Source: a virus. From it: a DNA stretch of 64,000 nt. Shown piece by piece: positions 2,436 through 51,674 of the stretch (position 1 is its first letter; each line of letters opens with the position of its first letter). The translations under genes and the position numbers were made by a program. The notes under the pieces were generated by a model. It was not told the DNA's origin. It searched no databases and worked only from the letters and a program-made list of their open reading frames with translations. Where the stretch lies: positions 1 to 64,000 of the IMG/VR virus record IMGVR_UViG_3300045600_000078; one strand, 5' to 3'.

Positions 2436-2555
2436 ATGTCTGATCCTAATTTTAGCGAGGCCGATATTCTGAAGTCTGCCTGCGATCAGGGTAATACCGA
2501 TGGCGATGGGCCTTCGGATTCCGAGGTTAAGACCGGTGATACTGATGGCAAGTAG
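2436..2555 (+). CDS. Small acidic leader ORF (39 aa) overlapping the endolysin start; paralog of 41733..41840
   Basis: MSDPNFSEADILKSACDQGNTDGDGPSDSEVKTGDTDGK. The motif DGDGP(S/D)D.EVK is shared with the ORF upstream of the second CHAP lysin. The lysin ATG is embedded in its last codons. Confidence 0.45.
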   Translation: MSDPNFSEADILKSACDQGNTDGDGPSDSEVKTGDTDGK

Positions 2556-4071
2556 AGACGCATTTCTTCAGACCGCGTCAGGAGAAGTTGGATATTCTCG
2601 TTGGAATGATCCTGAGGCAGGCACCAAGTACGGACGATGGTATAGGGATAATGTCGACTCGAATCCATATTACGGAGAGAGTGGGACTCCTTATTGTGCT
2701 ATGTTCGTATCTTGGTGTGCTGCCCAGGTTGGAATGTCTATGCCAGGTCTTCCTGGCGCGTATGTTCCTTGGGTTCTCAATGCTTGCCGAGATGCTGGGT
2801 CGCTCGTCTATAATGAAGACGGGCAGCCTGGAGACCCCATTATGTTTGACTGGAACGGTGACGGTAATCCGGATCACATCGGCATTTGCGAAGTGAACCA
2901 TCCTAGCGAGCACTATATGGAGACTATCGAGGGCAATACCAATAATGGTTGTGTTGCCCGTCGTACTCGGTCATATTCTAATATTATTGGGTGCGCTCGT
3001 CCTTCTTGGGATGGATCTACACCAGCCCCACAGCCTACGCCTGCTCCGGAAGAGCAGCAGGCTATGAACGGGATTGATATTTATTCTGGTGAAGGGGATA
3101 ACGGAATAAATATAAGTCAAGTAAAGGGAGATTTTGTCATTATCAAGGCTACCCAGGGTACGAACTATGTTAATCCATATTTTAGCCGCTGGGTAAACGA
3201 TGTGCCTAATTCTGGAAAGAAGCTTGGTATTTATCACTATGCTTCTGGCGGAAATGCTACGGACGAAGCAAATCATTTTTGTGATGTAATCGGATCCACA
3301 AAGGGACTTCTCGCCCTTGACTGGGAGAGTAATGCTGGCAATGGAGAAAATCCGGTATTTAATTCGGGTAACGATGCCAATTGGATTGCTGAGTTTCGTA
3401 ATCAGGTCCATGCACGTACTGGTGTTTGGGCTCTTGTTTACACTTCTAGAGCATATATTGGCAACACCGGGGTTAGCTCAAATTATCTTTGGGTTGCCCA
3501 GTATGGATATTCTGATCAGGGTCTTACCGACTATCGAGACTCGCCTAAGTTCGAAGGGCAGTTTGATTGCGCTATTCGCCAGTATGCTAGCGATGCTCAT
3601 ATTCCTGGCTATGGCGGAGAACTTGATATTAACAAGGCATATTTTAGCCCAGATCGGTGGGATCAGTATGCCAATGGTGCTGGGATTCAGCCTGATACGC
3701 CATCGGAAAACACCATTTCTGAGGATGGCTACGCTGGAAGTGCGACTATCTACTTAGCCCAGGCAGAGGCTAAGGCTAAAGGGTATAATGCTATGACTGA
3801 TGGCTGCGTATCTGGCCAGGTTGACTGGGTTCTCAATCAGCCTGGTATTCGTAATACTCAGAATGGTGTTTGGCTTCGTGGTAATGACGGGTCGCTTCTT
3901 GTTATGGCTATTCAGCATGTACTCGGAGTCGAAGAAGACGGATTCTTCGGTCCTGACACGTGGCATGCTCTCGAGGCTCGTGAAGGAAGCTGCATCGATA
4001 ATACCATTGAAGCTCCAAGCTGCACAATTCAGAAGTGGCAGCACGAGCTTAATCAAGGAACATTCTTTTAA
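2545..4071 (+). CDS. Endolysin: CHAP peptidase/amidase + GH25 muramidase + PG_binding_1-like C-terminal domain
   Basis: CHAP: GYSRWNDPEAGTKYGRWY, YCAMFVSWC, PDHIGICE. GH25: NGIDIYSGEG..DFVIIKATQGTNYVNPYF..LGIYHYA..LDWE. C-terminus: VEEDGFFGPDTWHALEA. Start moved to ATG 2545, which gives the same 15-aa N-terminus length as paralog 41824. Confidence 0.9.
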   Translation: MASRDAFLQTASGEVGYSRWNDPEAGTKYGRWYRDNVDSNPYYGESGTPYCAMFVSWCAAQVGMSMPGLPGAYVPWVLNACRDAGSLVYNEDGQPGDPIMFDWNGDGNPDHIGICEVNHPSEHYMETIEGNTNNGCVARRTRSYSNIIGCARPSWDGSTPAPQPTPAPEEQQAMNGIDIYSGEGDNGINISQVKGDFVIIKATQGTNYVNPYFSRWVNDVPNSGKKLGIYHYASGGNATDEANHFCDVIGSTKGLLALDWESNAGNGENPVFNSGNDANWIAEFRNQVHARTGVWALVYTSRAYIGNTGVSSNYLWVAQYGYSDQGLTDYRDSPKFEGQFDCAIRQYASDAHIPGYGGELDINKAYFSPDRWDQYANGAGIQPDTPSENTISEDGYAGSATIYLAQAEAKAKGYNAMTDGCVSGQVDWVLNQPGIRNTQNGVWLRGNDGSLLVMAIQHVLGVEEDGFFGPDTWHALEAREGSCIDNTIEAPSCTIQKWQHELNQGTFF

Positions 4072-5614: not shown

Positions 5615-5617
5615 CTT

Positions 5618-6930: not shown

Positions 6931-6967
6931 GTTAAGAGTCTAACACGGACTCTTAACTTTTATATTT
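6931..6967 (+). terminator. Terminator hairpin, conserved-loop class
   Basis: GTTAAGAGTC [TAACACG] GACTCTTAAC followed by TTTTATATTT. Confidence 0.65.
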
Positions 6968-7817: not shown

Positions 7818-7849
7818 GCTATGAATTCTCACAAGGATTCATAGCTTTT
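7818..7849 (+). terminator. Terminator hairpin, conserved-loop class
   Basis: GCTATGAAT [TCTCACAAGG] ATTCATAGC followed by TTTT. Confidence 0.6.
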
Positions 7850-7876
7850 CGCAGGCATAACATCTTCTATAATGAG
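7848..7876 (+). promoter_or_regulatory. Tripartite promoter-like motif, copy 5
   Basis: TTCGCA ggcataa CAT cttc TATAAT GAG. Confidence 0.6.
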
Positions 7877-7905
7877 GGTTAAAACTACGACGAAAGGAAG
7901 ATATT

Positions 7906-10307: not shown

Positions 10308-10353
10308 AGTATTAAGTTTGGCAGATACAGAACTGTCATATTTAGAGAGTCAC

Positions 10354-12830: not shown

Positions 12831-13130
12831 ATGCCCACATCGGAAGAATTATATTCTAATCTCAAAGAATTTGTTGATTTACACAGAATAGTTAATATTA
12901 CTGACCTTGTAGAGCACAAGATGGACTATACTTCGAATCAAGTAACCCTTGCTATTGGAAAACTTAAGAACGAAGGGTACAAATTCTTTACTGAAGACCA
13001 AACAAATGAATACTTCGACATCAACGATAAAAAGTATTCTACCACTAAGCGGAAGGTTTGCTATATTTGTATCGGGTCCGTTGCCGTGAACGATTGCCAA
13101 GACTTTTCTAGTATTCCTATATTTGCATAG
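12831..13130 (+). CDS. Hypothetical protein, possible winged-helix (99 aa)
   Basis: RBS TGGAGG 6 nt upstream of the internal ATG. Confidence 0.5.
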   Translation: MPTSEELYSNLKEFVDLHRIVNITDLVEHKMDYTSNQVTLAIGKLKNEGYKFFTEDQTNEYFDINDKKYSTTKRKVCYICIGSVAVNDCQDFSSIPIFA

Positions 13131-13734: not shown

Positions 13735-13807
13735 GGGCTCTTGGCGCAACGGTTAGCGCGGAGGACTCATAATCCTTAGGTTACAGGTTCAAATCCTGTA
13801 GGGCCCA
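13735..13807 (+). tRNA. tRNA with CAU anticodon (elongator Met or Ile2-lysidine type)
   Basis: Manual cloverleaf: GGGCTCT/AGGGCCC acceptor, GCGC D-stem, anticodon loop CTCATAA, T-arm ACAGG-TTCAAAT-CCTGT. No encoded CCA and no initiator features. Confidence 0.9.
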
Positions 13808-13847
13808 CTAAGGGTATTTTTACAAACTTCTATGAAGAGAGGTTTTT

Positions 13848-16587: not shown

Positions 16588-16671
16588 GGGGGCGTGGCGG
16601 AACGGCAGACGCGGGAGACTTAAAATCTTTTGTCGCAAGACGTGTGGGTTCGAATCCCACCGCCCCTACCA
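16588..16671 (+). tRNA. tRNA-Leu(UAA), type II, CCA encoded
   Basis: GGGGGCG/CGCCCCT acceptor (G1.U72), anticodon loop CTTAAAA, 13-nt variable arm, T-arm GTGGG-TTCGAAT-CCCAC, then ACCA. Confidence 0.9.
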
Positions 16672-20696: not shown

Positions 20697-20773
20697 GCCT
20701 CGGTAACTCAATTGGTTAGAGTAGTGGACTTTTAATCCAAAGGTTGTGGGTTCGAATCCCACCCGGAGCACCA
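20697..20773 (+). tRNA. tRNA-Lys(UUU) copy 1, CCA encoded, C3.A70 acceptor mismatch
   Basis: GCCTCGG/CCGGAGC acceptor, anticodon loop CTTTTAA, T-arm GTGGG-TTCGAAT-CCCAC. Confidence 0.85.
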
Positions 20774-20798: not shown

Positions 20799-20875
20799 GC
20801 CTCGGTAACTCAATTGGTTAGAGTAGTGGACTTTTAATCCAAAGGTTGTGGGTTCGAATCCCACCCGGGGCACCA
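20799..20875 (+). tRNA. tRNA-Lys(UUU) copy 2, CCA encoded
   Basis: Identical to copy 1 except G70 restores the C3-G70 pair (CCGGGGC). Confidence 0.9.
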
Positions 20876-21314: not shown

Positions 21315-21389
21315 GGCATCATCGTCTAATGGTTAGGACGAGACCCTTTCAAGGTCTAGATGCGAGTTCAATTCTCACTGATGCTACCA
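21315..21389 (+). tRNA. tRNA-Glu(UUC), CCA encoded
   Basis: GGCATCA/TGATGCT acceptor (G1.U72), D-arm GTCT-AATGGTTA-GGAC, anticodon loop CTTTCAA. The T-arm has one C.A mismatch. Confidence 0.8.
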
Positions 21390-36681: not shown

Positions 36682-36693
36682 GCCATATTTTGG

Positions 36694-36722
36694 TTCGCGT
36701 AGAATACATGGTGCCTAATGAA
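36694..36722 (+). promoter_or_regulatory. Tripartite promoter-like motif, copy 20 (upstream of the nuclease/RNAP-candidate operon)
   Basis: TTCGCG tagaata CAT ggtg CCTAAT GAA, followed by an imperfect hairpin and TATTTTT. Confidence 0.5.
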
Positions 36723-36771
36723 TAGAAGGGTAGAGTACACTCTTTCTTATTTTTCCAAAGGAGGCAACCCA

Positions 36772-37605: not shown

Positions 37606-40314
37606 ATGAGCGACGAAGATCAAGAAGAGCGATATTTGATTCACTATGGTACGCCTAGGCACTCCGGGAGGTATCCTTGGGGCTCTGGTGAAAACCCATG
37701 CCAGCGTAATGGCAATTTCTTAAGTCGATATTCAGATCTTCATGAACAGGGCATCGCCGATAAGGACATAGCAAAAGCAATGGGTATGTCCCTTAACGAT
37801 CTTAGATCTCAGCGCCAGCTGGCAAAGGTTGAACAGAAGGCCTCCGATATTTCTACGGCTCGAAGGCTTAAGGATTCGGGAATGAGCATAACGGCTATTA
37901 GCCGTCAGATGGAAAAAAACGAATCGTCTATCAGATCCCTGCTCAATCCATCTAATAAAATGCGTAATGATCGGCTCATTACTACTCGAGACATGCTCAA
38001 AGATCAGATAGAAAAGAAAAAGTATCTTGATGTCGGCAAGGGCGTTGAGTACGATGTCGGAGTCAGCAAGCAAATGCTTGATAACGCTGTCAATACTTTA
38101 ACCCATGAAGGTTATCAGGTAATTAATCTTCAGGTTACCCAGCGAGGAACCGGTCTTAAGACTACCCGAAAGGTTCTTTGCCCTGAAGGAACCACACTTC
38201 AAGATGTTCGTGATCATCAAGCAGACATTGGCCTGATTAATGAACGTTGGAGTGATGATACACAATCATATTCTTCATTGGGTCTTAAGCCAATAAAGAG
38301 TATCTCGTCTAAGCGTGTAGCTATTCGCTATGGCGACGAAGGTGGAACCGATAGAGACGGCGTTATAGAGTTGCGCCGAGGAGTTGCTGGGCTTGACCTT
38401 GGTGATTCGAGGTATGCCCAGGTTCGAATTGGAGTTGATGGCACACATTATCTTAAGGGAATGGCTATCTATAGTGATAACGTTCCTAAGGGATACGATA
38501 TTCTGTTTAACACCAACAAGGCTTCAGGAACTCCTAAAAAAGACGTTCTTAAGTCAATGGAAACTAACAAGGACGGCTCCATAAACAAAGACAATCCATT
38601 CAAGACGTCTCTTAAGCTTGACGAGAGTCTTCATCCTGTGCAAAAGGGATATTTGAACGTTGTTCGCGAAGAGGGAGACTGGGGAAAGTGGAAGAAGACC
38701 CTTGCTTCCCAGATGCTGGCAAAGCAGCCGCAAGAGCTGATTAACAAACAGCTCAATCTTACATATTCTTCGAAACGATCTGAGCTTGATGAGATTAAGG
38801 CACTTACCAATCCCGCAGTTAAGAAGAAGCTTCTTATGAGCTTTGCTGATGGGTGCGATTCAGACGCTGACCATCTCTCTGCAGCAGCTATGCCTAGACA
38901 GGCAACTAAGGTTCTTTTGCCCCTCACGGATATTGCATCAAACAAGATCTATGCTCCGGATTATAGAGATGGCGAGTCGGTGGTTCTCATTCGATATCCT
39001 CACGGAGGAAAGTTTGAGATTCCAGAGTTGACGGTTGACAATCATAGTTCCAAAGAAGCTAAGAGTATATTTAAGGGTGGCGGGCAGCTTAAGGACGCCG
39101 TGGGTATTAATACGGATGTAGCTGCTCGTCTTTCTGGTGCCGACTTTGATGGCGACACGGTTCTTGTTATACCTAACTCGCGTAAAGAGATTAAAAGTTC
39201 TTCTCCGCTAAAGGGGCTTAAGGACTTCAATCCTTCGGAGGCATATCCTGGCTACGAGGGAATGAAGGTTCTTAGTGATAAGCAAAAGGGTAATGAAATG
39301 GGTAAGGTGACCAACCTTATTACAGACATGACCCTTAAGGGGGCTAGTGACGAAGAGCTAACTCGTGCTGTTAAGCATTCAATGGTTGTCATTGATGCCC
39401 ACAAACATAAGCTTAACTACAAGCAGTCCGAAAAAGACAATGGAATTAAAGAGCTTAAGGAAAAGTACCAAGGGCATTACGACGAGGATGGCAAGTTTAA
39501 GACCGGAGCCTCTACGGTTATATCTAGGGCGAAAGCTGAAACGCGTGTTCCCAAGCGTAGGATGAATTACAAGATAAATCCTACTACTGGTGAAAAAGAA
39601 TGGATGTATACCGGGGATAAAAAGGCTATCGTTAAAGTTGACAAGAACACCGGAGAAAAGAAAGTAGTTAAATACGAGCCGGTTCTTATGGTGTCAACTC
39701 AGATGGCTGAAACAAAAGATGCTAATACTCTTTCTTCGGGAACGGATCCAGAAAAGGCATACGCCAAGCACGCTAATAAGCTCAAGGCTTTAGCAAACGA
39801 AGCCCGTCTTACGGCTGTAAACACGAAGCCTATGGCTTGGTCTAGTTCAGCTAAGAAAACATATTCTGCTGAAGTGGAATCGCTTGATGCCAAGCTGGCC
39901 AATGCTAAACGTAAGGCTCCACTTGAACGTAAGGCTCAGAGTATAGCTAACCAACAGGTATCGATTGCCCGACAGGATAATCCAGACATGGAAAAAGAAG
40001 ATCTTAAGAAAGTCGGTACCCAAGCGTTGACTGCAGCACGAGCAAATCTTGGTATGAAAAAAGTTGATGTCGATATTACTCCTAAGGAATGGGAAGCCAT
40101 TCAGGCTGGGGCAATAAGCGATCACAAGCTTAGCGAGATATTAACACGTGCTGATTTGGATGTGGTTAAGGCTTATGCTACACCTCGAAACAAGAAGACT
40201 TTGACTGCGGCAAAGAAGGCTCAGATAAAGGCTGCATATTCTAGAGGCTTTACTCAGAGAGAGATTGCTGACATGTTTGGAATATCTCCTTCGACAGTAA
40301 ATGAAATAGTTTAA
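37606..40314 (+). CDS. Candidate single-polypeptide two-barrel (YonO-like) RNA polymerase with HTH modules
   Basis: VVLIRYPHGG...AVGINTDVAARLSGADFDGDTVLVIP aligns with the beta-prime DPBB ([10 protein letters not shown]...[26 protein letters not shown]). THYLKGMAI resembles the beta RHGxKG motif. C-terminal FTQREIADMFGISPSTVNEIV is HTH-like. Start at ATG 37606, 8 nt after GGAGGTG. Confidence 0.55.
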   Translation: MSDEDQEERYLIHYGTPRHSGRYPWGSGENPCQRNGNFLSRYSDLHEQGIADKDIAKAMGMSLNDLRSQRQLAKVEQKASDISTARRLKDSGMSITAISRQMEKNESSIRSLLNPSNKMRNDRLITTRDMLKDQIEKKKYLDVGKGVEYDVGVSKQMLDNAVNTLTHEGYQVINLQVTQRGTGLKTTRKVLCPEGTTLQDVRDHQADIGLINERWSDDTQSYSSLGLKPIKSISSKRVAIRYGDEGGTDRDGVIELRRGVAGLDLGDSRYAQVRIGVDGTHYLKGMAIYSDNVPKGYDILFNTNKASGTPKKDVLKSMETNKDGSINKDNPFKTSLKLDESLHPVQKGYLNVVREEGDWGKWKKTLASQMLAKQPQELINKQLNLTYSSKRSELDEIKALTNPAVKKKLLMSFADGCDSDADHLSAAAMPRQATKVLLPLTDIASNKIYAPDYRDGESVVLIRYPHGGKFEIPELTVDNHSSKEAKSIFKGGGQLKDAVGINTDVAARLSGADFDGDTVLVIPNSRKEIKSSSPLKGLKDFNPSEAYPGYEGMKVLSDKQKGNEMGKVTNLITDMTLKGASDEELTRAVKHSMVVIDAHKHKLNYKQSEKDNGIKELKEKYQGHYDEDGKFKTGASTVISRAKAETRVPKRRMNYKINPTTGEKEWMYTGDKKAIVKVDKNTGEKKVVKYEPVLMVSTQMAETKDANTLSSGTDPEKAYAKHANKLKALANEARLTAVNTKPMAWSSSAKKTYSAEVESLDAKLANAKRKAPLERKAQSIANQQVSIARQDNPDMEKEDLKKVGTQALTAARANLGMKKVDVDITPKEWEAIQAGAISDHKLSEILTRADLDVVKAYATPRNKKTLTAAKKAQIKAAYSRGFTQREIADMFGISPSTVNEIV

Positions 40315-40319
40315 TTATC

Positions 40320-40367
40320 AGAATAGCCACCTAGCTTCTATAGTGGGTGGCTATTCTATATTTTTTG
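40320..40367 (+). terminator. Strong intrinsic terminator after the RNAP-candidate gene
   Basis: AGAATAGCCACC ... GGTGGCTATTCT (12 bp) followed by ATATTTTTT. Confidence 0.7.
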
Positions 40368-40831: not shown

Positions 40832-41089
40832 GTGATAACGTTGATTACCAAGTATTTAAGCACTATAGATAACCCATTTGACCCAGCTACGGACTTTGAT
40901 AGGTGGTATGCCTATGATGAGCAGAAGGGGTATCACACATGCTCCTATCTAGCTAGGATAGCGCGTACATCCAGCTCTCTTACAGAGGCTGAGAACCAAC
41001 GGGCTATCAATGCCGCAATAGATGACATAGTCCGATTGAACATCAACGGAATGTACATCATGACCAGGGAAGGTACCGAGGATGAGTAG
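40832..41089 (+). CDS. Hypothetical protein (85 aa, GTG/TTG start), isolated inside the non-coding region
   Basis: ORF with IDNPFDPATDFDRWYAYDEQKGYHTCSYLARIA; weak RBS. Confidence 0.4.
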   Translation: MITLITKYLSTIDNPFDPATDFDRWYAYDEQKGYHTCSYLARIARTSSSLTEAENQRAINAAIDDIVRLNINGMYIMTREGTEDE

Positions 41090-41090
41090 G

Positions 41091-41132
41091 GTCCTACCCC
41101 CTACCCCTACCCCTGCCCACCCTACGGCCCTA
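41091..41132 (-). other. G-quadruplex-type tract (C-runs on +, G-runs on -)
   Basis: CCTACCCCCTACCCCTACCCCTGCCCACCCTACGGCCC: at least five runs of 3 or more C in an otherwise AT-rich region. Confidence 0.5.
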
Positions 41133-41324: not shown

Positions 41325-41390
41325 AAAAAAAATAAAAAAATAAAAAAATAAAAAAAAATAAATTTTTATTTTAAAAAAATATTACTGACA
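41325..41390. repeat. Phased A-tract block
   Basis: ATAAAAAAAATAAAAAAATAAAAAAATAAAAAAAAATAAATTTTTATTTTAAAAAAAT. Confidence 0.7.
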
Positions 41391-41424
41391 TATTAAAAAA
41401 ATAATATAAAATAGATCTAAAAAA

Positions 41425-41475
41425 GGGGGGGGAGGTGCCGGGGTATACCCCCCCTCCCTGCATCGCCGGCCTCCT
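41425..41475. repeat. GC-rich nested imperfect palindrome flanked by A-runs
   Basis: GGGGGGGGAGGTGCCGGGGTATACCCCCCCTCCCTGCATCGCCGGCCTCC. Inner perfect palindrome GGGGTATACCCC; outer GGAGG(T)GCCGG / CCGGCCTCC. Confidence 0.6.
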
Positions 41476-41500
41476 AAAAAAAGCTCCGGGGGTTATATTC

Positions 41501-41626
41501 TTAGAAGGTTTTCTGAGAGATGTGGATAGTTAAACTGACCACACAGTAAAAGTTTCCCACTTTCCTCTCTTTTCATGGGTAAAAACTATATTAAAACTAG
41601 TCCACATCTCTCAGAAAGTCTTCTAA
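41501..41626 (+). repeat. 26-bp inverted repeat enclosing 74 nt (long stem-loop)
   Basis: TTAGAAGGTTTTCTGAGAGATGTGGA (41501-41526) against TCCACATCTCTCAGAAAGTCTTCTAA (41601-41626). The two differences are G.U-compatible only in + strand RNA. Confidence 0.7.
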
Positions 41627-41732
41627 TAGTGTTTCAATCTAATAGCATATTCTTCAAAACTAGGCTAATAGTATTGAAAACAAATGGTGTTCTTTTCAAA
41701 GAGTAATTAATTTGTACAGAAAGGAAACGATT

Positions 41733-41840
41733 ATGGCTGAAACTAATGTTCCCGAGCACATTACAGATCACATTGATGGCCCACAGGATGGCGACGGCCC
41801 GGATGATGTCGAGGTGAAGCAAGATGGGACAAGCAAATGA
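41733..41840 (+). CDS. Small acidic leader ORF (35 aa) overlapping the start of the second CHAP lysin; paralog of 2436..2555
   Basis: MAETNVPEHITDHIDGPQDGDGPDDVEVKQDGTSK; RBS GAAAGGAA. Confidence 0.4.
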   Translation: MAETNVPEHITDHIDGPQDGDGPDDVEVKQDGTSK

Positions 41841-42756
41841 CCTTTTAAATGCCGAACGAGGCGAACTTGGATATTCTCGTTGGAATGATCCCGAGGCTGG
41901 TACTAAGTATGGTCGTTGGTATGCTTCAATGAGTGGCGATTCTTACTATGGCGAAAGCGGAGTTCCTTATTGCGCCATGTTTCAGTCTTGGTGTCTAGCT
42001 CAGTCTGGTGTAACTGCTTCTGGTATGCCTGGCGCATATTGTCCTTCGATTCTTTCGGCGGCTCGATCCGACGGGGCTCTTGTTTACAACGAGGATGCTC
42101 AGCCCGGAGACTTACTTCTGTTTGACTGGAATGGTGATGGCAGCCCAGACCATATAGGTTGCTGCGAAGTTAACCATCCGAGTCAATCATATATGGAAAC
42201 CATTGAAGGCAACACCAACAACGGATGTGTTGCTCGACGTACTCGTTCGTATTCTAACATCATCGGAGTAATCCGTCCGACATATTCAGTTGTTCCTGAT
42301 CATCGCCATTCCGCGGTGCAGCTCTATGATGGAAACTCAACCGATGCCCAGAGGTTCAGTCGTATCAATCATGACGATGGATCACAGTCGTATATTTTCA
42401 TTAGCTGTGGTCTCGCTCTTGATGTGTGCAATGGTCGTGGTGAAGCGGGAACCCCAATTCAGGCCTATGAACAAAACGGAACTGCGGCTCAAGGTTGGAT
42501 CATGGAAGATGTTGAGAACGCATCCATCTACAAGCCTGGAAATGCGGTTCCCGTTGTTCTTCGTTCCGCGCTCGATCGTAATCTTGTTCTTGATTGCATC
42601 AGTGGAGGGAAAGTTGACGGTACTCCTCTTCAGCTTTGGCCGTACAATGGCACCGCTGCTCAGCAGTGGGCAATAGTCGATCATGGCGATGGAAGTATTA
42701 CATTAATCAACGTCGGGTCTAGTAAAGCGCTCGACGTTGTCGGTGGAGGAAATTAG
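41824..42756 (+). CDS. CHAP peptidoglycan hydrolase + ricin-type (QxW)3 lectin domain
   Basis: The CHAP domain is highly similar to 2545..4071 (GYSRWNDPEAGTKYGRWY, YCAMFQSWC, PDHIGCCE). Lectin: DAQRF, AAQGW, AAQQW. Confidence 0.85.
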   Translation: MGQANDLLNAERGELGYSRWNDPEAGTKYGRWYASMSGDSYYGESGVPYCAMFQSWCLAQSGVTASGMPGAYCPSILSAARSDGALVYNEDAQPGDLLLFDWNGDGSPDHIGCCEVNHPSQSYMETIEGNTNNGCVARRTRSYSNIIGVIRPTYSVVPDHRHSAVQLYDGNSTDAQRFSRINHDDGSQSYIFISCGLALDVCNGRGEAGTPIQAYEQNGTAAQGWIMEDVENASIYKPGNAVPVVLRSALDRNLVLDCISGGKVDGTPLQLWPYNGTAAQQWAIVDHGDGSITLINVGSSKALDVVGGGN

Positions 42757-44391: not shown

Positions 44392-45324
44392 ATGGCCGAA
44401 AACGAAGAGTATCTTGAACATCATGGAATTCTTGGAATGAAGTGGGGGGTTCGTCGATCGGATGCTCAGCTGGGATACAAGAAGTCTGATTCAACGTATG
44501 TTAAAGGCTTAAAGAAGAATATTAAAGCTGAAGGTCTTATCTCCGGGGTTCTTGATACCAAAGTTACAGGAACGAATAAGGGGAAATCAAAGACTAACAT
44601 TAAGTATAAGCAGGCAGTTAATAGGCAAAAGCTTAGTGAAAAGAAAGACGACATAAAGTCTTTGAATGCTGGGGTAGATCCAAAGAAGCGATCTGATAAC
44701 GAGTCAAAGTTATATGATGCTGTTGCTTTACGTATCGGTGGTACCTCTAGTCGTGGACGTGGCCCAGCTTCGACTCTTTCTAATGATGAATTAAAAAGTG
44801 CTGTTGAACGAATGTCTATGGAGAAGCGGTATCGTGAGCTTCAAGCTGATGATGCGCAGGCTCATATGTCTAAGGGTCAGCGTTTCATGAATACCGCCGG
44901 GGAAGTTCTTGGCCAGTCAATCAAGACTGCTTCTCAGCAATATTTGACTAAGCAAATTGGAAACATGCTTAACGGCGGGGCTTCTGATTCGCAATCTAAT
45001 GGTAATTCAAACAACAATGCTCGTACTACTGCACAGTCAATGGCTGATGATTTTGTTAAGGGAAACAAGAGCGACGTTTCCACGGCAAAAGAATTTGGGC
45101 AAATTCTTAAGAAAGCCGACAATAATTATGGTGCGTATCAGTCAAAGATGGGCGAAAAGATAGACGATTATAATAATACTCCGGCAAACAAAACGACGGC
45201 ATATAAGACTGGCCAGATTATAAAGCGGGGGACTGATAAACTGGCGAATTACAAGTCTAATATGAATACGAGCATGAATTCGAATGAGCTCGATGGTTAT
45301 AAGGCTAAGCATCTAAAGAAGTAG
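44392..45324 (+). CDS. HHG-x-GMKWG N-terminal-motif protein, paralog 1 (310 aa)
   Basis: MAENEEYLEHHGILGMKWGVRR...; the rest is low-complexity and basic. RBS AAGGAGGTG. Confidence 0.6.
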   Translation: MAENEEYLEHHGILGMKWGVRRSDAQLGYKKSDSTYVKGLKKNIKAEGLISGVLDTKVTGTNKGKSKTNIKYKQAVNRQKLSEKKDDIKSLNAGVDPKKRSDNESKLYDAVALRIGGTSSRGRGPASTLSNDELKSAVERMSMEKRYRELQADDAQAHMSKGQRFMNTAGEVLGQSIKTASQQYLTKQIGNMLNGGASDSQSNGNSNNNARTTAQSMADDFVKGNKSDVSTAKEFGQILKKADNNYGAYQSKMGEKIDDYNNTPANKTTAYKTGQIIKRGTDKLANYKSNMNTSMNSNELDGYKAKHLKK

Positions 45325-47114: not shown

Positions 47115-47546
47115 ATGACTAACGAAGAGTATCTAATGCACCATGGGATTATTGGAATGAAGTGGGGTGTGCATAAGATAAAGACCTCCACAGATTATGC
47201 TGATCTTTCAAATAAAAAAGATAAGCTTACGTCTCAGAACGAAAAGCTTAATAACAAAATTTATAAAATGACCAACAAATCGAATAAGATGGCTATGAAA
47301 GGCGCTAAGTTTAATTATAAGGCGTCAAAGGATACTTATAAACATGATGGAGAAAACACGGATAAGTATACCTATAAGTCTAATAAATACACGGTGAAGT
47401 CGGCAAAGCTCGATAACAAGGTTTCCAAGGCACGTCGAACTATACAGCAGAATACTGTATTTATTAATGCTATGAATTCACGAATGGGCGAACTTAATTC
47501 GGGTAATGTTTCTGCTGGATCGAATTATATTAATTCTTGTCTGTAG
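47115..47546 (+). CDS. HHG-x-GMKWG N-terminal-motif protein, paralog 2 (143 aa)
   Basis: MTNEEYLMHHGIIGMKWGVHK...; Lys-rich body; RBS TGGAGGTG. Confidence 0.6.
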   Translation: MTNEEYLMHHGIIGMKWGVHKIKTSTDYADLSNKKDKLTSQNEKLNNKIYKMTNKSNKMAMKGAKFNYKASKDTYKHDGENTDKYTYKSNKYTVKSAKLDNKVSKARRTIQQNTVFINAMNSRMGELNSGNVSAGSNYINSCL

Positions 47547-47606: not shown

Positions 47607-48023
47607 ATGAACGAAGATTATTTAGCACATCATGGAGTTCTTGGAATGAAGTGGGGAGTTCGAAAAGCAAGCAGGGCATATGCCAATGCCGAAACAGCTT
47701 CTGATAAAGCCAATGCTAAAAAAAAGATGGTTAGCGAATTATCGAAAGATAGTAAAAAGTTAAATAAACTTAATGCCAAAGCTAGTAAAATGATAGGTAA
47801 GACAGTTAACAAGAAGTACGGGGTTTTCGGATCCCAATCAAAATATGAAAAGTATAAGGCCCGGGCAGATAAAAAAGCTTATAAAGCAAAAAAATGGTAC
47901 GATAATATGGAGACCCAATATAAGCAGCAAAATATTGTTGATATTTCTGATAGTGATAAAAAACTTGGAGAAAAGTATATAAATTATTTCAGGCAAGCTT
48001 CTGAAATTTCAAAATCCTTCTAA
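47607..48023 (+). CDS. HHG-x-GMKWG N-terminal-motif protein, paralog 3 (138 aa)
   Basis: MNEDYLAHHGVLGMKWGVRK...; Lys-rich body. Confidence 0.6.
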   Translation: MNEDYLAHHGVLGMKWGVRKASRAYANAETASDKANAKKKMVSELSKDSKKLNKLNAKASKMIGKTVNKKYGVFGSQSKYEKYKARADKKAYKAKKWYDNMETQYKQQNIVDISDSDKKLGEKYINYFRQASEISKSF

Positions 48024-49397: not shown

Positions 49398-49547
49398 TAT
49401 TTTCTAGTAGTATAGATTTGATTTGACTTTGATGCATATCTTATACAAAAATTCAAAGGTATGCTCTATATGAAAATCTTTCTATTCTATTCTGGATTAT
49501 TATATTTTTTTTTGTAATACAAAAAATAATTGATTGGAGGTTTAAGT

Positions 49548-51674
49548 ATGAAGTATGATTTTGGCGGATATGCTACCAAGAACGATCTTCTTTGCTCTGA
49601 CGGGCGAGTGATTCGTCGTGATGCTTTTAAGGCGTGCGATGGAAAGCGTGTCCCACTCGTGTGGAATCATATGCACGATGCTCCAGAGAATGTTCTTGGC
49701 CACGCAGATCTTCAGAACCGTGCTGATGGTGTATATGCGTATTGTTCTTTTAATGATACGGATAAGGCTGCGGCAGCAAAGGAAGCTGTCCGAAACGGGG
49801 ACATTTGTTCTCTTTCTATTTATGCCAATCACCTTAAGCAAACCGGTCATGACGTAATTCATGGCGCTATTCGTGAAGTTAGCCTTGTTCTTGCCGGGGC
49901 TAACCCTGGAGCTGAAATTGAGCAGGTCGCTATTCAGCATAGTGACGATAGCTACGAGACTCTTTCTGACGAAGCAGTTATAAAGTCTTGGGTGAATCTC
50001 GATAGTGACGAAGTTGAGTTTGCTCATTCCGACGTTCAGGATGATACTAAGAAAGAAGATAATACTACGGATACTTCAAATACTAATGTGGAGGCACAGT
50101 CTAATAAGTCGTCCGATTCGTCGATGTCGATTGAGGACTTTGTCAATTCCCTCACGGATGATCAGAAGAAGCTTCTTGCTCAGCTGATCAAGAAGGATAC
50201 GGCTTCTAAGCCGAATCAAAATGAGACCACATCTAAGGCTGCTGCTCCTAGTGCCGCCAAGTGTGCTCCAGCAAAGCCAGATGCTGAGCTTGCCCAGTCT
50301 GACATTCCGGCGAATTTTAAGAAAGATTCAAACAAGGAGGATCCCAGCATGAACAATGCTACTACCCCGACCACGCCTGCTGCTTCTGCGCAGGACAACA
50401 GTGACAAGACCGTTCAGGACATTTATGATGCCATGACCGACGATCAGAAGACCGTTGTTCAGTATCTCGTTGGTCTTGCTCTTCAGGAAAATGGTGGCGA
50501 CGATTCGAAGGACAAGGGTTCTGACGAGGTCGCCCAGTCTGATATTTATGGGGGAAATGATATGCAGCATAACGTTTTTGATTCCGAGGGCAATGTTCTT
50601 TCGCATTCCGATATTGAGGGCATTAAGGATCAGCTCTTCTCTGATGTTATGAATGATGTTAAGCATGGCGCTTCGTTCAAGGAGTCTGTCCTTGCTCATG
50701 CTGAGGGCGACTATGGCATCCAGAATGTTTCGGTTCTTTTCCCTGATGCTCAGGATGTTGCTGATGGTCCTCAGTTCATGGATCAGCAGGCCGAGTGGGT
50801 CAATGTCATCATGAACGGTACCAAGCATGTTCCGTTCGCCAAGTTCAAGACGATCATCGCGGACATCACCGCTGCCGATGCTCGTGCCAAGGGCTATATC
50901 AAGGGCAAGCAGAAGGTCAACGAGTTCTTCAAGGTGGCTAAGCGTGAGACCACGCCTCAGACCGTGTACAAGAAGCAGAAGATGGATCGTGACGACATCG
51001 TCGACATCACTGACTTCGATGTTGTGAATTGGCTTCGTGGGGAGATGCGCATCAAGCTCAACGAGGAGCTTGGCCGTGCCTTCCTGATTGGTGATGGCCG
51101 CAGCGCCGAGTCCCCTGATAAGATCGATGAGGAGCACATTCGTCCTATCGCTAGCGATGTCGATGTGTTTAACGTGAAGGTTAACCTTTCGCAGAACACT
51201 GATTACGCTAAGATGATCGAAGAGATTGCACTTGCCCACAGCTATTATCGTGGCAACGGTACCCCCATGTTCTTCACTTCGCCTACCACCCATACCAAGA
51301 TGCTTTGGGTGAAGGATACCACCGGCCGTCGTCTGTATGCTTCCGAAGATGAGCTCTGCGCTGCTCTTCGCGTTTCGCAGATTGTCGACGTTCCTGACAT
51401 GGAGTCCGCGACTCATGTCGATGGCACCGATACCTATGACATCCTTGGTATCAAGGTTAACCCCAGCGATTACACGGTTGGCGCTGACAAGGGCGGCGAG
51501 ATCAACAACTTTGATGATTTCGACATTGACTACAACCAGTACAAGTATCTCATGGAGACTCGTTGCTCCGCTGGTCTGACCATTCCTTGGTCTGCTGAGA
51601 CGATTCGCTTTGACACCACCAAGGCCCCTGAGAAGGAGACCATCAGCAACGGCTCGATCACTGACGTTCATTAG
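49548..51674 (+). CDS. Fused prohead protease (HK97/S78-like) + acidic linker + HK97-fold major capsid protein
   Basis: N-terminus: VPLVWNHMHD..VLGHADL...SLSIYAN...IREVSLVLAGANPGAEI. Linker about 200 aa rich in D/K/S/T/A. C-terminus: ADITAADARAKGYIKGKQK..RETTPQTVYKKQKMDRDDIVDITDFDVVNWLRGEMRIKLNEELGRAFLIGDGR. Confidence 0.8.
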   Translation: MKYDFGGYATKNDLLCSDGRVIRRDAFKACDGKRVPLVWNHMHDAPENVLGHADLQNRADGVYAYCSFNDTDKAAAAKEAVRNGDICSLSIYANHLKQTGHDVIHGAIREVSLVLAGANPGAEIEQVAIQHSDDSYETLSDEAVIKSWVNLDSDEVEFAHSDVQDDTKKEDNTTDTSNTNVEAQSNKSSDSSMSIEDFVNSLTDDQKKLLAQLIKKDTASKPNQNETTSKAAAPSAAKCAPAKPDAELAQSDIPANFKKDSNKEDPSMNNATTPTTPAASAQDNSDKTVQDIYDAMTDDQKTVVQYLVGLALQENGGDDSKDKGSDEVAQSDIYGGNDMQHNVFDSEGNVLSHSDIEGIKDQLFSDVMNDVKHGASFKESVLAHAEGDYGIQNVSVLFPDAQDVADGPQFMDQQAEWVNVIMNGTKHVPFAKFKTIIADITAADARAKGYIKGKQKVNEFFKVAKRETTPQTVYKKQKMDRDDIVDITDFDVVNWLRGEMRIKLNEELGRAFLIGDGRSAESPDKIDEEHIRPIASDVDVFNVKVNLSQNTDYAKMIEEIALAHSYYRGNGTPMFFTSPTTHTKMLWVKDTTGRRLYASEDELCAALRVSQIVDVPDMESATHVDGTDTYDILGIKVNPSDYTVGADKGGEINNFDDFDIDYNQYKYLMETRCSAGLTIPWSAETIRFDTTKAPEKETISNGSITDVH

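Follow-up and report, generated by a model that had tools for sequence, protein, structure and literature searches.

The gene examined here lies at positions 37606-40314 (plus strand) of a 64,000-nt stretch of viral DNA (IMG/VR record IMGVR_UViG_3300045600_000078, positions 1 to 64,000), which we call the window. Its open reading frame (ORF) encodes 902 amino acids (aa), or 904 aa if translation starts at an alternative in-frame ATG two codons upstream (37600). The product is predicted to be a single-polypeptide, DNA-dependent RNA polymerase (RNAP) of the QDE-1/YonO superfamily, with two double-psi beta-barrels in a catalytic core spanning aa ~238-620. Two helix-turn-helix (HTH) modules at the N-terminus and one of the sigma-region-4 type at the C-terminus most likely give the enzyme promoter recognition of its own. 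The best overall explanation of the data, to which we give about even chances, is that this protein would act as the phage's own transcriptase, initiating at a ~30-bp motif found ahead of ~20 short early/middle units, and that it may be responsive to the CTAACA-loop hairpins found at the ends of these units.

The fold assignment was obtained from AlphaFold models compared with solved structures by Foldseek. The full-length model had a predicted local distance difference test (pLDDT) score of 79.3. Because its global template-modelling (TM) scores against known structures were low (about 0.3), the core (aa 225-705) was modelled separately (pLDDT 84.5, predicted TM-score 0.74). With the full-length model, QDE-1 (2j7n_B) was matched in the Protein Data Bank (PDB) with E = 5e-9 and probability 1.00, Arabidopsis RDR2 with E = 6e-4, and the best 50 matches were all two-barrel RNAPs. 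With the core, QDE-1 was matched at E = 3.4e-10 (TM-score normalized to the query up to 0.49), followed by the Thermus-phage single-subunit RNAPs 8f72 and 8f5m (E = 3-4e-8), maize and Arabidopsis RDR2 (2-4e-5) and the crAss-like phage protein gp66 (5e-3). Weaker core matches were to Pol IV, Pol II and beta-prime chains, to the AR9 non-virion RNAP (nvRNAP) and to generic double-psi barrels (p97-N, VAT-N), the last being expected for a double-psi beta-barrel fold. The matches in the BFVD library of viral structures were phage proteins named as RNA-dependent RNA polymerases (RdRPs) and giant-virus RNAP subunits. The predicted secondary structure contains two six-stranded barrels, at aa 238-302 and 433-523, and in the model a short helix precedes the DFDGD loop and the last strand of the second barrel follows it. 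A single polypeptide carrying two such barrels and HTH modules is what had been proposed from the letters of the window, and structural comparison and conservation both agree with it.

Conservation was assessed in an alignment of 44 family sequences with 38-75% identity, which underlies all statements of invariance for this family. R463-x-P465, D513-F-D-G-D517 and K284-G285 were invariant (44/44). The ADFDGD codons (GCNGAYTTYGAYGGNGAY; aa 512-517, nt 39139-39156, plus strand), with the predicted Mg-binding aspartate triad, are the single occurrence of the degenerate pattern in the window, and the pattern was found in 0/100 shuffles. The peptide strings on which the original prediction had been built were all located in the ORF, namely GESVVLIRYPHGG...ADFDGDTVLVIPNS and the N- and C-terminal HTH-like segments; so was the segment GVDGTHYLKGMAIYS (nt 38431-38475), which had been likened to a motif of the beta-subunit barrel. 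Ruprich-Robert & Thuriaux (2010) listed eight residues common to all two-barrel polymerases, which in QDE-1 are D709, R738, K743, R962, P964, D1007, D1009 and D1011; the Rpb2 counterparts of the acidic and two basic residues of the first barrel are D837, K979 and K987. Candidates in the same order (D251, R274, K284, R463, P465, D513, D515, D517) are strictly invariant in the 44 sequences. D251, R274 and K284 would correspond to QDE-1 D709, R738 and K743, judging from order and conservation, and hhalign paired R274 and K284 with YonO R266 and K271. Fold similarity to solved members of the two-barrel superfamily goes together with a DxDGD loop preceded by R-x-P. We consider it very probable that the protein is an active two-barrel nucleotide polymerase.

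The barrels are embedded in additional modules. The N-terminus is a disordered tail (pLDDT <50 for aa 1-36) with a near-invariant motif, RYLIHYGTPRHSGRYPWGSG, at aa 9-28 (37630-37689), in which H13, G15, S20, G21 and R22 are invariant and Y14, R18, Y23, P24 and G26-G28 are conserved in at least 90% of sequences. It is followed by a helical region with two HTH-like modules at aa 38-138 (37717-38019; AlphaFold helices at aa 38-47, 52-58, 63-90, 95-102, 106-112 and 115-138), where aa 81-113 gave HTH_7 and Sigma70_r4_2 matches under threshold (E about 2e-4). The first, beta-subunit-like barrel occupies aa 238-305 (38317-38520; strands at aa 238-241, 253-256, 270-277, 281-289 and 299-302), and its invariant columns are D251, R274, K284-G285, N302, N304 and K305. 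The second, beta-prime-like and presumed catalytic barrel at aa 433-523 (38902-39174; strands at aa 433-439, 447-449, 458-462, 474-477, 498-501 and 518-523) holds R463-x-P465-H466 and the predicted metal-binding loop, and a Pfam RdRP match covers aa 503-621. On its 3' side a conserved helical hairpin (aa 558-622, 39277-39471) with the invariant residues G566, N570, D574, H591-D597, K600 and H601 aligns with the equally invariant YonO segments G593..N597 and I624-D625..K628; it might be a bridge-helix-like element. At the C-terminus, aa 865-901 (40198-40308) form an HTH of the sigma-70 region 4/homeodomain-like type, well over the Pfam cut-offs for HTH_23 (37.9 bits, cut-off 24.6) and Sigma70_r4_2 (30.5 bits, cut-off 25.7) and detected in 43-44 of the 44 family members; this match shows the type of fold only, not sigma function. 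Of the HTH modules that had been proposed at both ends, the C-terminal one therefore stands on Pfam gathering scores, and the N-terminal one is sub-threshold in the window protein and clears the Pfam cut-offs at the equivalent position of its homolog in Lactococcus phage 1706, orf75. The remaining accessory parts are an alpha/beta domain, a beta-rich domain and a helical region.

By sequence the protein belongs to PHROG 4291 ('RNA-dependent RNA polymerase'; E = 0, 1157.6 bits, aa 5-901 against profile positions 6-904 of 909). The match to the Pfam RdRP family PF05183 (17.6 bits, E = 0.0017) fell below the gathering threshold of 23.8 bits, and the protein is not counted as a member of it. PF05183 was nevertheless the sole non-HTH Pfam family common among the family members, matching 31 of the 44 at E <= 0.01 (best 1.7e-4; 22.1 bits for 1706 orf75), always sub-threshold. 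PDB searches by sequence, with the single protein and with the family profile, returned HTH matches only. Full-length homologs with 37-51% identity were found by tblastn in 250 phage records, with hosts including Arthrobacter, Gordonia, Streptomyces, Lactococcus, Faecalibacterium, Microbacterium, Rhodococcus and Curtobacterium, and also in gut siphoviruses; their annotations include 'RNA-dependent RNA polymerase', 'HTH DNA-binding protein', 'hypothetical protein', 'excise' and 'structural protein'. The nearest relative in the phage collection is 51% identical to the window protein, three Logan metagenome assemblies contain an identical protein, and megablast against phages found no near-identical genome. 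An exhaustive search put the family at a minimum of 1185 clusters when sequences are grouped at 50% identity (E <= 1e-30); with grouping at 90% identity, at least 8000 clusters have words in common with the query. The similarity search also identified phages P078, P092, P118 and P162 as relatives of phage 1706. Gene order is kept in the relatives: primase-polymerase, single-strand annealing protein, helicase, endonuclease, exonuclease, polymerase gene, small ORF. The phage 1706 protein was listed among five 'YonO-like' families by Ruprich-Robert & Thuriaux (2010), and Koert et al. (bioRxiv 10.1101/842583) described the protein as the signature gene of a supercluster of actinophages and Firmicute phages, noting that HHpred matches it to PF05183, that both of its ends carry HTHs and that it has a DxDGD motif. 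The family was therefore already flagged in 2010 and 2021 and in databases (RefSeq and PHROGs both call it an RNA-dependent RNA polymerase), and the window protein adds a member to it. Phage 1706 orf75 and the supercluster protein are of the same family as the window protein, with full-length homology (37-51%), the same synteny and the same HTH-core-HTH layout.

The original prediction had called the protein YonO-like, and this holds at the level of the superfamily. Like YonO, it is a phage-encoded, single-chain protein of about 100 kDa with a two-barrel core and collinear invariant motifs, and in both cases the gene is placed immediately upstream of the late operon. In SPbeta, YonO reads the late genes as a single operon that begins right after yonO (Forrest et al. 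2017, PMC5467207). We compared it with the YonO sequence from the SPbeta record NC_001884 and with a YonO-family alignment of 22 sequences. Neither hhalign against the single YonO sequence nor the full-length comparison with the 22-sequence profile was significant (profile Prob 0.2). When only the cores were aligned, the invariants of both families were collinear (VR..KG, RxPH, DxDGD, G..SN.IT, ID..K). The core score was 23.3, compared with 16.7 +/- 2.8 (1/40 reaching it) and 18.0 +/- 1.9 (2/40) in column shuffles, i.e. ~2.4 standard deviations over the shuffled controls, and segment-wise statistics were marginal. The two families differ at the C-terminus: YonO ends in CxxC...CxxC without an HTH, and its four cysteines (C799, C802, C816, C819) are invariant in the 22 sequences, whereas the window family has HTHs and no invariant cysteine among its 44 sequences. 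Membership of the YonO family proper is rejected on the non-significant profile match and the absence of the four-cysteine cluster, and in this narrower sense the earlier label fails. YonO itself matches no Pfam family, and NCBIfam is without a YonO model.

The best structural matches, QDE-1 and RDR2 (E = 3e-10 to 5e-9, about 480-530 aligned columns), share with the window protein the single chain, both barrels, the DxDGD loop and R-x-P, and their D...R...K triad of the first barrel has candidate counterparts in it. Identity to them is only 11-15%, the genomic context is non-eukaryotic, and the window family, unlike QDE-1/RDR2, has HTH modules at both termini as well as a conserved tail at its N-terminus. 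Unlike those enzymes, the window protein is probably a promoter-specific, DNA-dependent enzyme of a double-stranded DNA phage. The nvRNAPs of the Thermus phage P23-45 type (8f72 'gp64' and 8f5m 'P74 gp62') likewise are single-subunit two-barrel phage RNAPs (TM-score normalized to the target 0.32-0.37), and the P23-45 RNAPs use their own phage-specific promoter and terminator motifs (PMC10770324), a precedent for the arrangement proposed here. They differ from the window protein in size (about 590 aa), in the lack of a fused HTH, in their GC-rich promoter and in belonging to an unrelated lineage.

Candidate target sites for the enzyme were apparent in the DNA. A position weight matrix (PWM) search of the window found 20 copies of the motif between 5616 and 36725, all on the plus strand and 0 on the minus strand; neither the late region (41.8-64 kb) nor the stretch 1-5.6 kb contained an early-type copy. 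Nineteen copies of the form ttTCGCA-N6-gCAT-N3-cTATAATGAGa, also seen as repeats, lie within 5616-26423, with starts at 5616, 6572, 7317, 7559, 7846, 8232, 8525, 8762, 9128, 9461, 9715, 9982, 10277, 11640, 13414, 16096, 23734, 25466 and 26390. Copy 20 (GGTTCGCGTAGAATACATGGTGCCTAATGAATAG; 36692-36725) is the weakest at 22.1 bits, compared with 26-40 bits for the others (38 bits for the copy at 7846-7879); as had been noted before, it lies upstream of the polymerase gene, at a distance of ~900 nt and ahead of the endonuclease and exonuclease ORFs. The blocks in the window are TCGCA, ACAT and TATAATGAG, and the general form of the ~30-bp motif is TCGC(A/G)-N7-(T)ACA(T)-N5-TATA(A/G)TGAG. In most of the window's copies a start codon follows 26-32 nt after the end of the -10-like hexamer, and a ribosome-binding site lies between the two. 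The copies at 5616, 10277 and 16096 have leaders of 53-83 nt before any ribosome-binding site or start codon and may produce short non-coding transcripts; the leader of copy 10277 runs into a CTAACA-type hairpin.

Using the window PWM as seed and refining it within each genome, we found the motif in five relatives that carry the gene: FP_oengus of Faecalibacterium (15-17 copies on the plus and 0 on the minus strand; gaCGCGAAAaa..CA.....cCTTTATGGA), P118 of Lactococcus (9/0; gTTTTACATACCCTATAATGA), 1706 of Lactococcus (13/0; C(A/G)CA.gTTTTACA.....CTATAGTAGAAAG), Scap1 of Streptomyces (8-9/0; TCGCAAgtTtTaCa.....TATAGTGAGACC) and Circum of Arthrobacter (10/0; tCGCGTAAATTACA.GGGcTATAATGA). In each of them the copies sit in early regions on one strand only, and gene and motif thus co-occur in six phages with four known host genera. 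Control sequences without the gene (phiC31, sk1 and a 50-kb SPbeta stretch) had no site of 30 bits or more, compared with 6-15 in each carrier. Block spacing was the same in all carriers, with TCGCR 14 nt and ACA(T) 5 nt upstream of the -10-like hexamer, a geometry that, read from the sequence, does not fit sigma-70 (17-nt spacing); in sk1, a phage that lacks its own polymerase gene, the early promoters annotated are of the -35/-10 type with 17-nt spacers. The FP_oengus hexamer, CTTTATGG, is without the key -11 A. The nuclease-polymerase operon is itself preceded by a motif copy in the window and in four relatives (L005 at 9074; FP_oengus, L009, at 27680; Scap1, L010, at 38768 and 38949; Circum, L012, at 46004). 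This operon copy scores among the lowest in each genome examined, which hints at a regulation differing from that of the other early units. The Scap1 motif (L010 22650-26836) ends in TATAGTGAGACC, which resembles the initiation region of T7 class III promoters, TATAGGGAGACC; since the enzymes are unrelated in fold, this likeness is probably a coincidence.

A second recurring element ends many of the early units. Terminator-type hairpins with a CTAACA(A/C) loop and a following T-run, found as repeat families D4, D7 and D8 and by a hairpin search, lie on the plus strand within 6926-29830 of the window, with loop starts at 6940, 7541, 8206, 8475, 9110, 9690, 13364 and 29801 and a weaker one at 10353. 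The window has at least 9 such loops, and three of the five relatives have them as well: Scap1 three (L010 23376, 24031, 27174), Circum four (L012 17976, 18958, 19788, 20113) and FP_oengus one (L009 27617). Intrinsic terminators of the hosts have no such loop requirement. That the loop is shared by phages of unrelated hosts suggests a phage-specific termination or RNA-processing signal. The polymerase gene itself is followed by a strong intrinsic-terminator-like hairpin (40320-40357, dG -23.3 kcal/mol, z -5.53, 0/200 shuffles folding as well) and a U-rich tail, AUAUUUUUU; a terminator had been noted here, with a 12-bp stem that we find to be 14-16 bp. A promoter-terminator grammar kept across host phyla points to a phage-encoded reader, for which the HTH-bearing polymerase is a conserved candidate. 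Whether this enzyme is the one that reads the conserved motif we regard as an evenly balanced question. A cross-phylum promoter/terminator grammar accompanying the gene appears to be undescribed in the literature searched, as do the hints, given next, that the enzyme is associated with the virion.

An enzyme that starts early transcription could be brought in by the virion. In the phage 1706 record (EU081845.1) the homolog orf75 is labelled 'structural protein', as are orf6, 7, 11, 12, 13, 17, 20, 21, 62 and 71; orf14-16, inside the morphogenesis module, are without this label. Such selective labelling looks as if the proteins had been detected experimentally in virions. This label, given by the depositor of the 1706 record, is the sole evidence for virion presence of the family, and the literature search gave nothing usable on 1706 virion proteomics or on transcriptomics of any carrier. 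The polymerase tail, L-x-HYG-T/V/I-x-R-x-SGRYPWGSG, resembles the motif YL-x-HHG-I/V-x-GMKWG of DUF7211 (PF23847), a domain that begins three small late ORFs near the terminase and portal genes (44392-45324, 47115-47546 and 47607-48023; Pfam E = 6e-11 to 8e-9). These ORFs are Lys-rich and start with NEEYL-x-HHG-(I/V)-x-GMKWGV; their DNA is also repeated (repeat family D10). Phage 1706 orf7, which is labelled structural, is a DUF7211 protein, and in Scap1 the two motifs nearly converge (HYGIKGMKWG vs HYGILRKSGRYPWG). The polymerase N-terminus gave no Pfam match to DUF7211. A hidden Markov model (HMM) made from the three window DUF7211 N-termini matched the polymerase at E = 50, and the reciprocal HMM ranked the DUF7211 ORFs 2nd, 4th and 9th of 656 with E of only 0.3-3.5. 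We therefore rejected DUF7211 membership of the tail, the HMM results giving no more than a hint and the likeness by regular expression being circular since the pattern was designed after the fact.

Delivery of the enzyme in the virion is in our view possible but less likely than not. The fuller scenario, that the polymerase is packaged in the capsid via its HYG...WG tail as a DUF7211 variant, is injected, reads the ~30-bp promoter unaided through its HTHs and stops at CTAACA hairpins, we hold slightly more tentatively still. N4 virion RNAP, gp66 of the crAss-like phage phi14:2 and P23-45 gp96 are injected and read phage-specific early promoters, and would be possible analogues if the window protein is packaged. 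Among them gp66 shares the two-barrel core with the window protein, with the weak fold match given above. Unlike the window protein, all three are giant (2000-5000 aa) and encoded among late or structural genes; in P23-45 the injected enzyme is a separate polymerase fused to the tape-measure protein.

The other functional option raised by the original prediction was a late role as in YonO: host RNAP would read the 20 early motifs, and the enzyme would transcribe the ~26-kb late module as one operon from a promoter in the ~1.5-kb region downstream of its gene. This is the most serious competitor, although we think it unlikely. The gene order is that of yonO and its late operon, the early-type motif is absent from the late module as described above, and the gene is expressed from an early/middle-type unit. 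Just upstream of the CHAP/ricin-type endolysin that opens the late module, an inverted repeat at 41490-41640 (26-nt arms, 92% complementary, 74 nt apart) folds into a very stable hairpin (dG -52 kcal/mol, z -7.3), which could be a regulatory leader or a DNA structure and, lying between the gene and the late genes, could serve such a late role. The region itself had been described as a 1.4-kb control region; it is not purely non-coding, as it contains a conserved ORF of 85 aa at 40832-41089 (plus strand; PHROG 4303, E = 6.3e-31). The window and all five relatives examined have this ORF directly after the polymerase gene (Scap1 gp56, P118 gp80, 1706 orf76, FP_oengus gp56, Circum gp99), and its product is a candidate partner of the polymerase. 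The downstream region could not be aligned among three relatives, and no conserved late promoter was found in it, which argues against late transcription by the enzyme. A sigma-70-like site of reasonable quality (CTGACA-16-TAAAAT, 41385-41412) is already present and points towards the late genes. What the downstream regions have in common is the PHROG 4303 ORF, AT-rich tracts, C-rich repeats and a GGGAGGGGG...CCCCCCC element.

A YonO-style late role would also leave unexplained an early motif and terminator loop kept across four host genera with a non-sigma-70 spacing, and the 'structural protein' label of phage 1706 fits a late-only enzyme poorly. The recurrence of the motif, its geometry, the CTAACA loops and that label together favour reading of the 20 motifs over the late role. 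In otherwise AT-rich DNA, the C-rich repeats (TATCCCCCATACCCCCC-like) and the GGGAGGGGG...CCCCCCC..CTGCAT element lie at 41090-41130 and 41425-41470 in the window, with elements of the same type at 12940-13010 and 13660-13713 in L005 and at 4370-4407 in L008. The metagenomic contigs L005-L007 end just after the polymerase gene, L005 at the matching 'CTGCAT'; these ends could mark a genome terminus or a stretch that assembles poorly. We considered a genome end (cos) near 41465, which is unproven, L006 breaking inside the C-rich repeats and independent assemblies of the same phage crossing the junction.

The position of the gene, which closes the conserved replication module in all relatives examined, would also suit an RNA synthase that makes origin-specific primers or R-loops for that module and not mRNAs. 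We find this improbable, as the 1339-aa neighbour already has a primase domain, the structural neighbours with known roles are transcriptases or RNA-interference polymerases, and three HTH modules with ~20 dispersed, gene-proximal motifs suit transcription better than a single origin. Still less probable is a true RdRP copying phage or host RNA, for example to make double-stranded or regulatory antisense RNA. The closest solved structures are indeed QDE-1 and plant RDR2, and PF05183 is the only recurrent enzymatic Pfam match; however, the database name was taken from the name of that Pfam family and not from an assay, and QDE-1 itself is described as also DNA-dependent (PMC9508822). YonO, Thermus-phage gp64 and crAss gp66 are DNA-dependent (PMC5467207, PMC10770324). 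HTH modules of the type that binds double-stranded DNA and promoter-like DNA motifs further argue for a DNA template, and we think it probable that the enzyme transcribes phage DNA. Equally far down the scale is a multi-HTH regulator with a non-polymerising barrel core, binding the motif for host RNAP as activator, sigma-like adaptor or repressor: many depositors annotate 'HTH DNA-binding protein' and only the HTHs pass curated Pfam thresholds, but strict invariance of eight catalytic-site candidates at 38-75% identity in a family of this size is not expected of a dead enzyme.

Several points weigh against motif reading by the polymerase. If the enzyme reads the motif while its own gene lies behind a motif copy, it must be pre-supplied, or host RNAP must bootstrap the system. 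Several of the phages have a perfect TATAAT as the -10-like block, which host sigma-A could use, and another conserved phage protein could read the motif. YonO, the only characterised phage relative with a known in vivo role, transcribes late genes (PMC5467207). The PWM searches in the relatives were seeded from the window motif; we judge the result to be real because of the controls and the strand asymmetry. No experimental work on the PHROG 4291 family, neither biochemistry nor transcriptomics, was found in the literature searched.

Other features of the window concern its late genes and its tRNAs. A gene for a fused prohead protease-major capsid protein (Peptidase_S78 + Phage_capsid, 49530-51674) is shared with Arthrobacter cluster AM/AU phages, with Scap1 and with phage 1706, in line with the supercluster assignment. 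Two paralogous lysin-like genes (2500-4071 and 41824-42756) have a common N-terminal domain with 73-86% DNA identity over ~200 nt; the second encodes CHAP and ricin-B lectin domains and lies upstream of terminase, as in the AM/AU phages. Ten tandem 78-nt repeats (5-1006), coding for 26-aa units that are 64-89% identical, lie inside a 603-aa ORF (25-1836) near the probable end of the late module, which looks like a repeat-containing tail or host-binding protein. The early region has five tRNA genes (Met, Leu-UAA, two near-identical Lys-UUU and Glu-UUC; 13735-13808, 16588-16671, 20697-20773, 20799-20875 and 21315-21389). All five are ordinary and none is a suppressor, and recoding via suppressor tRNAs is excluded.

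Phages of soil, dairy and gut carry the family as a signature gene, and the question at stake after YonO is whether a minimal two-barrel polymerase can find promoters without a sigma-like partner. With DNA-binding modules fused to the polymerase, and a candidate promoter and terminator that can be read from the genome, this question can be put to the test with a single purified protein and 34 bp of DNA. If the enzyme is indeed packaged, siphophages of Actinobacteria and Firmicutes would have a self-contained system in common, and this could explain how the lineage crossed phyla. If the enzyme reads the motif, the database names 'RNA-dependent RNA polymerase' and 'HTH DNA-binding protein', which mislead, would call for correction, and the family would offer a compact orthogonal transcription system for Gram-positive hosts and a possible mechanism of host-independent early expression.

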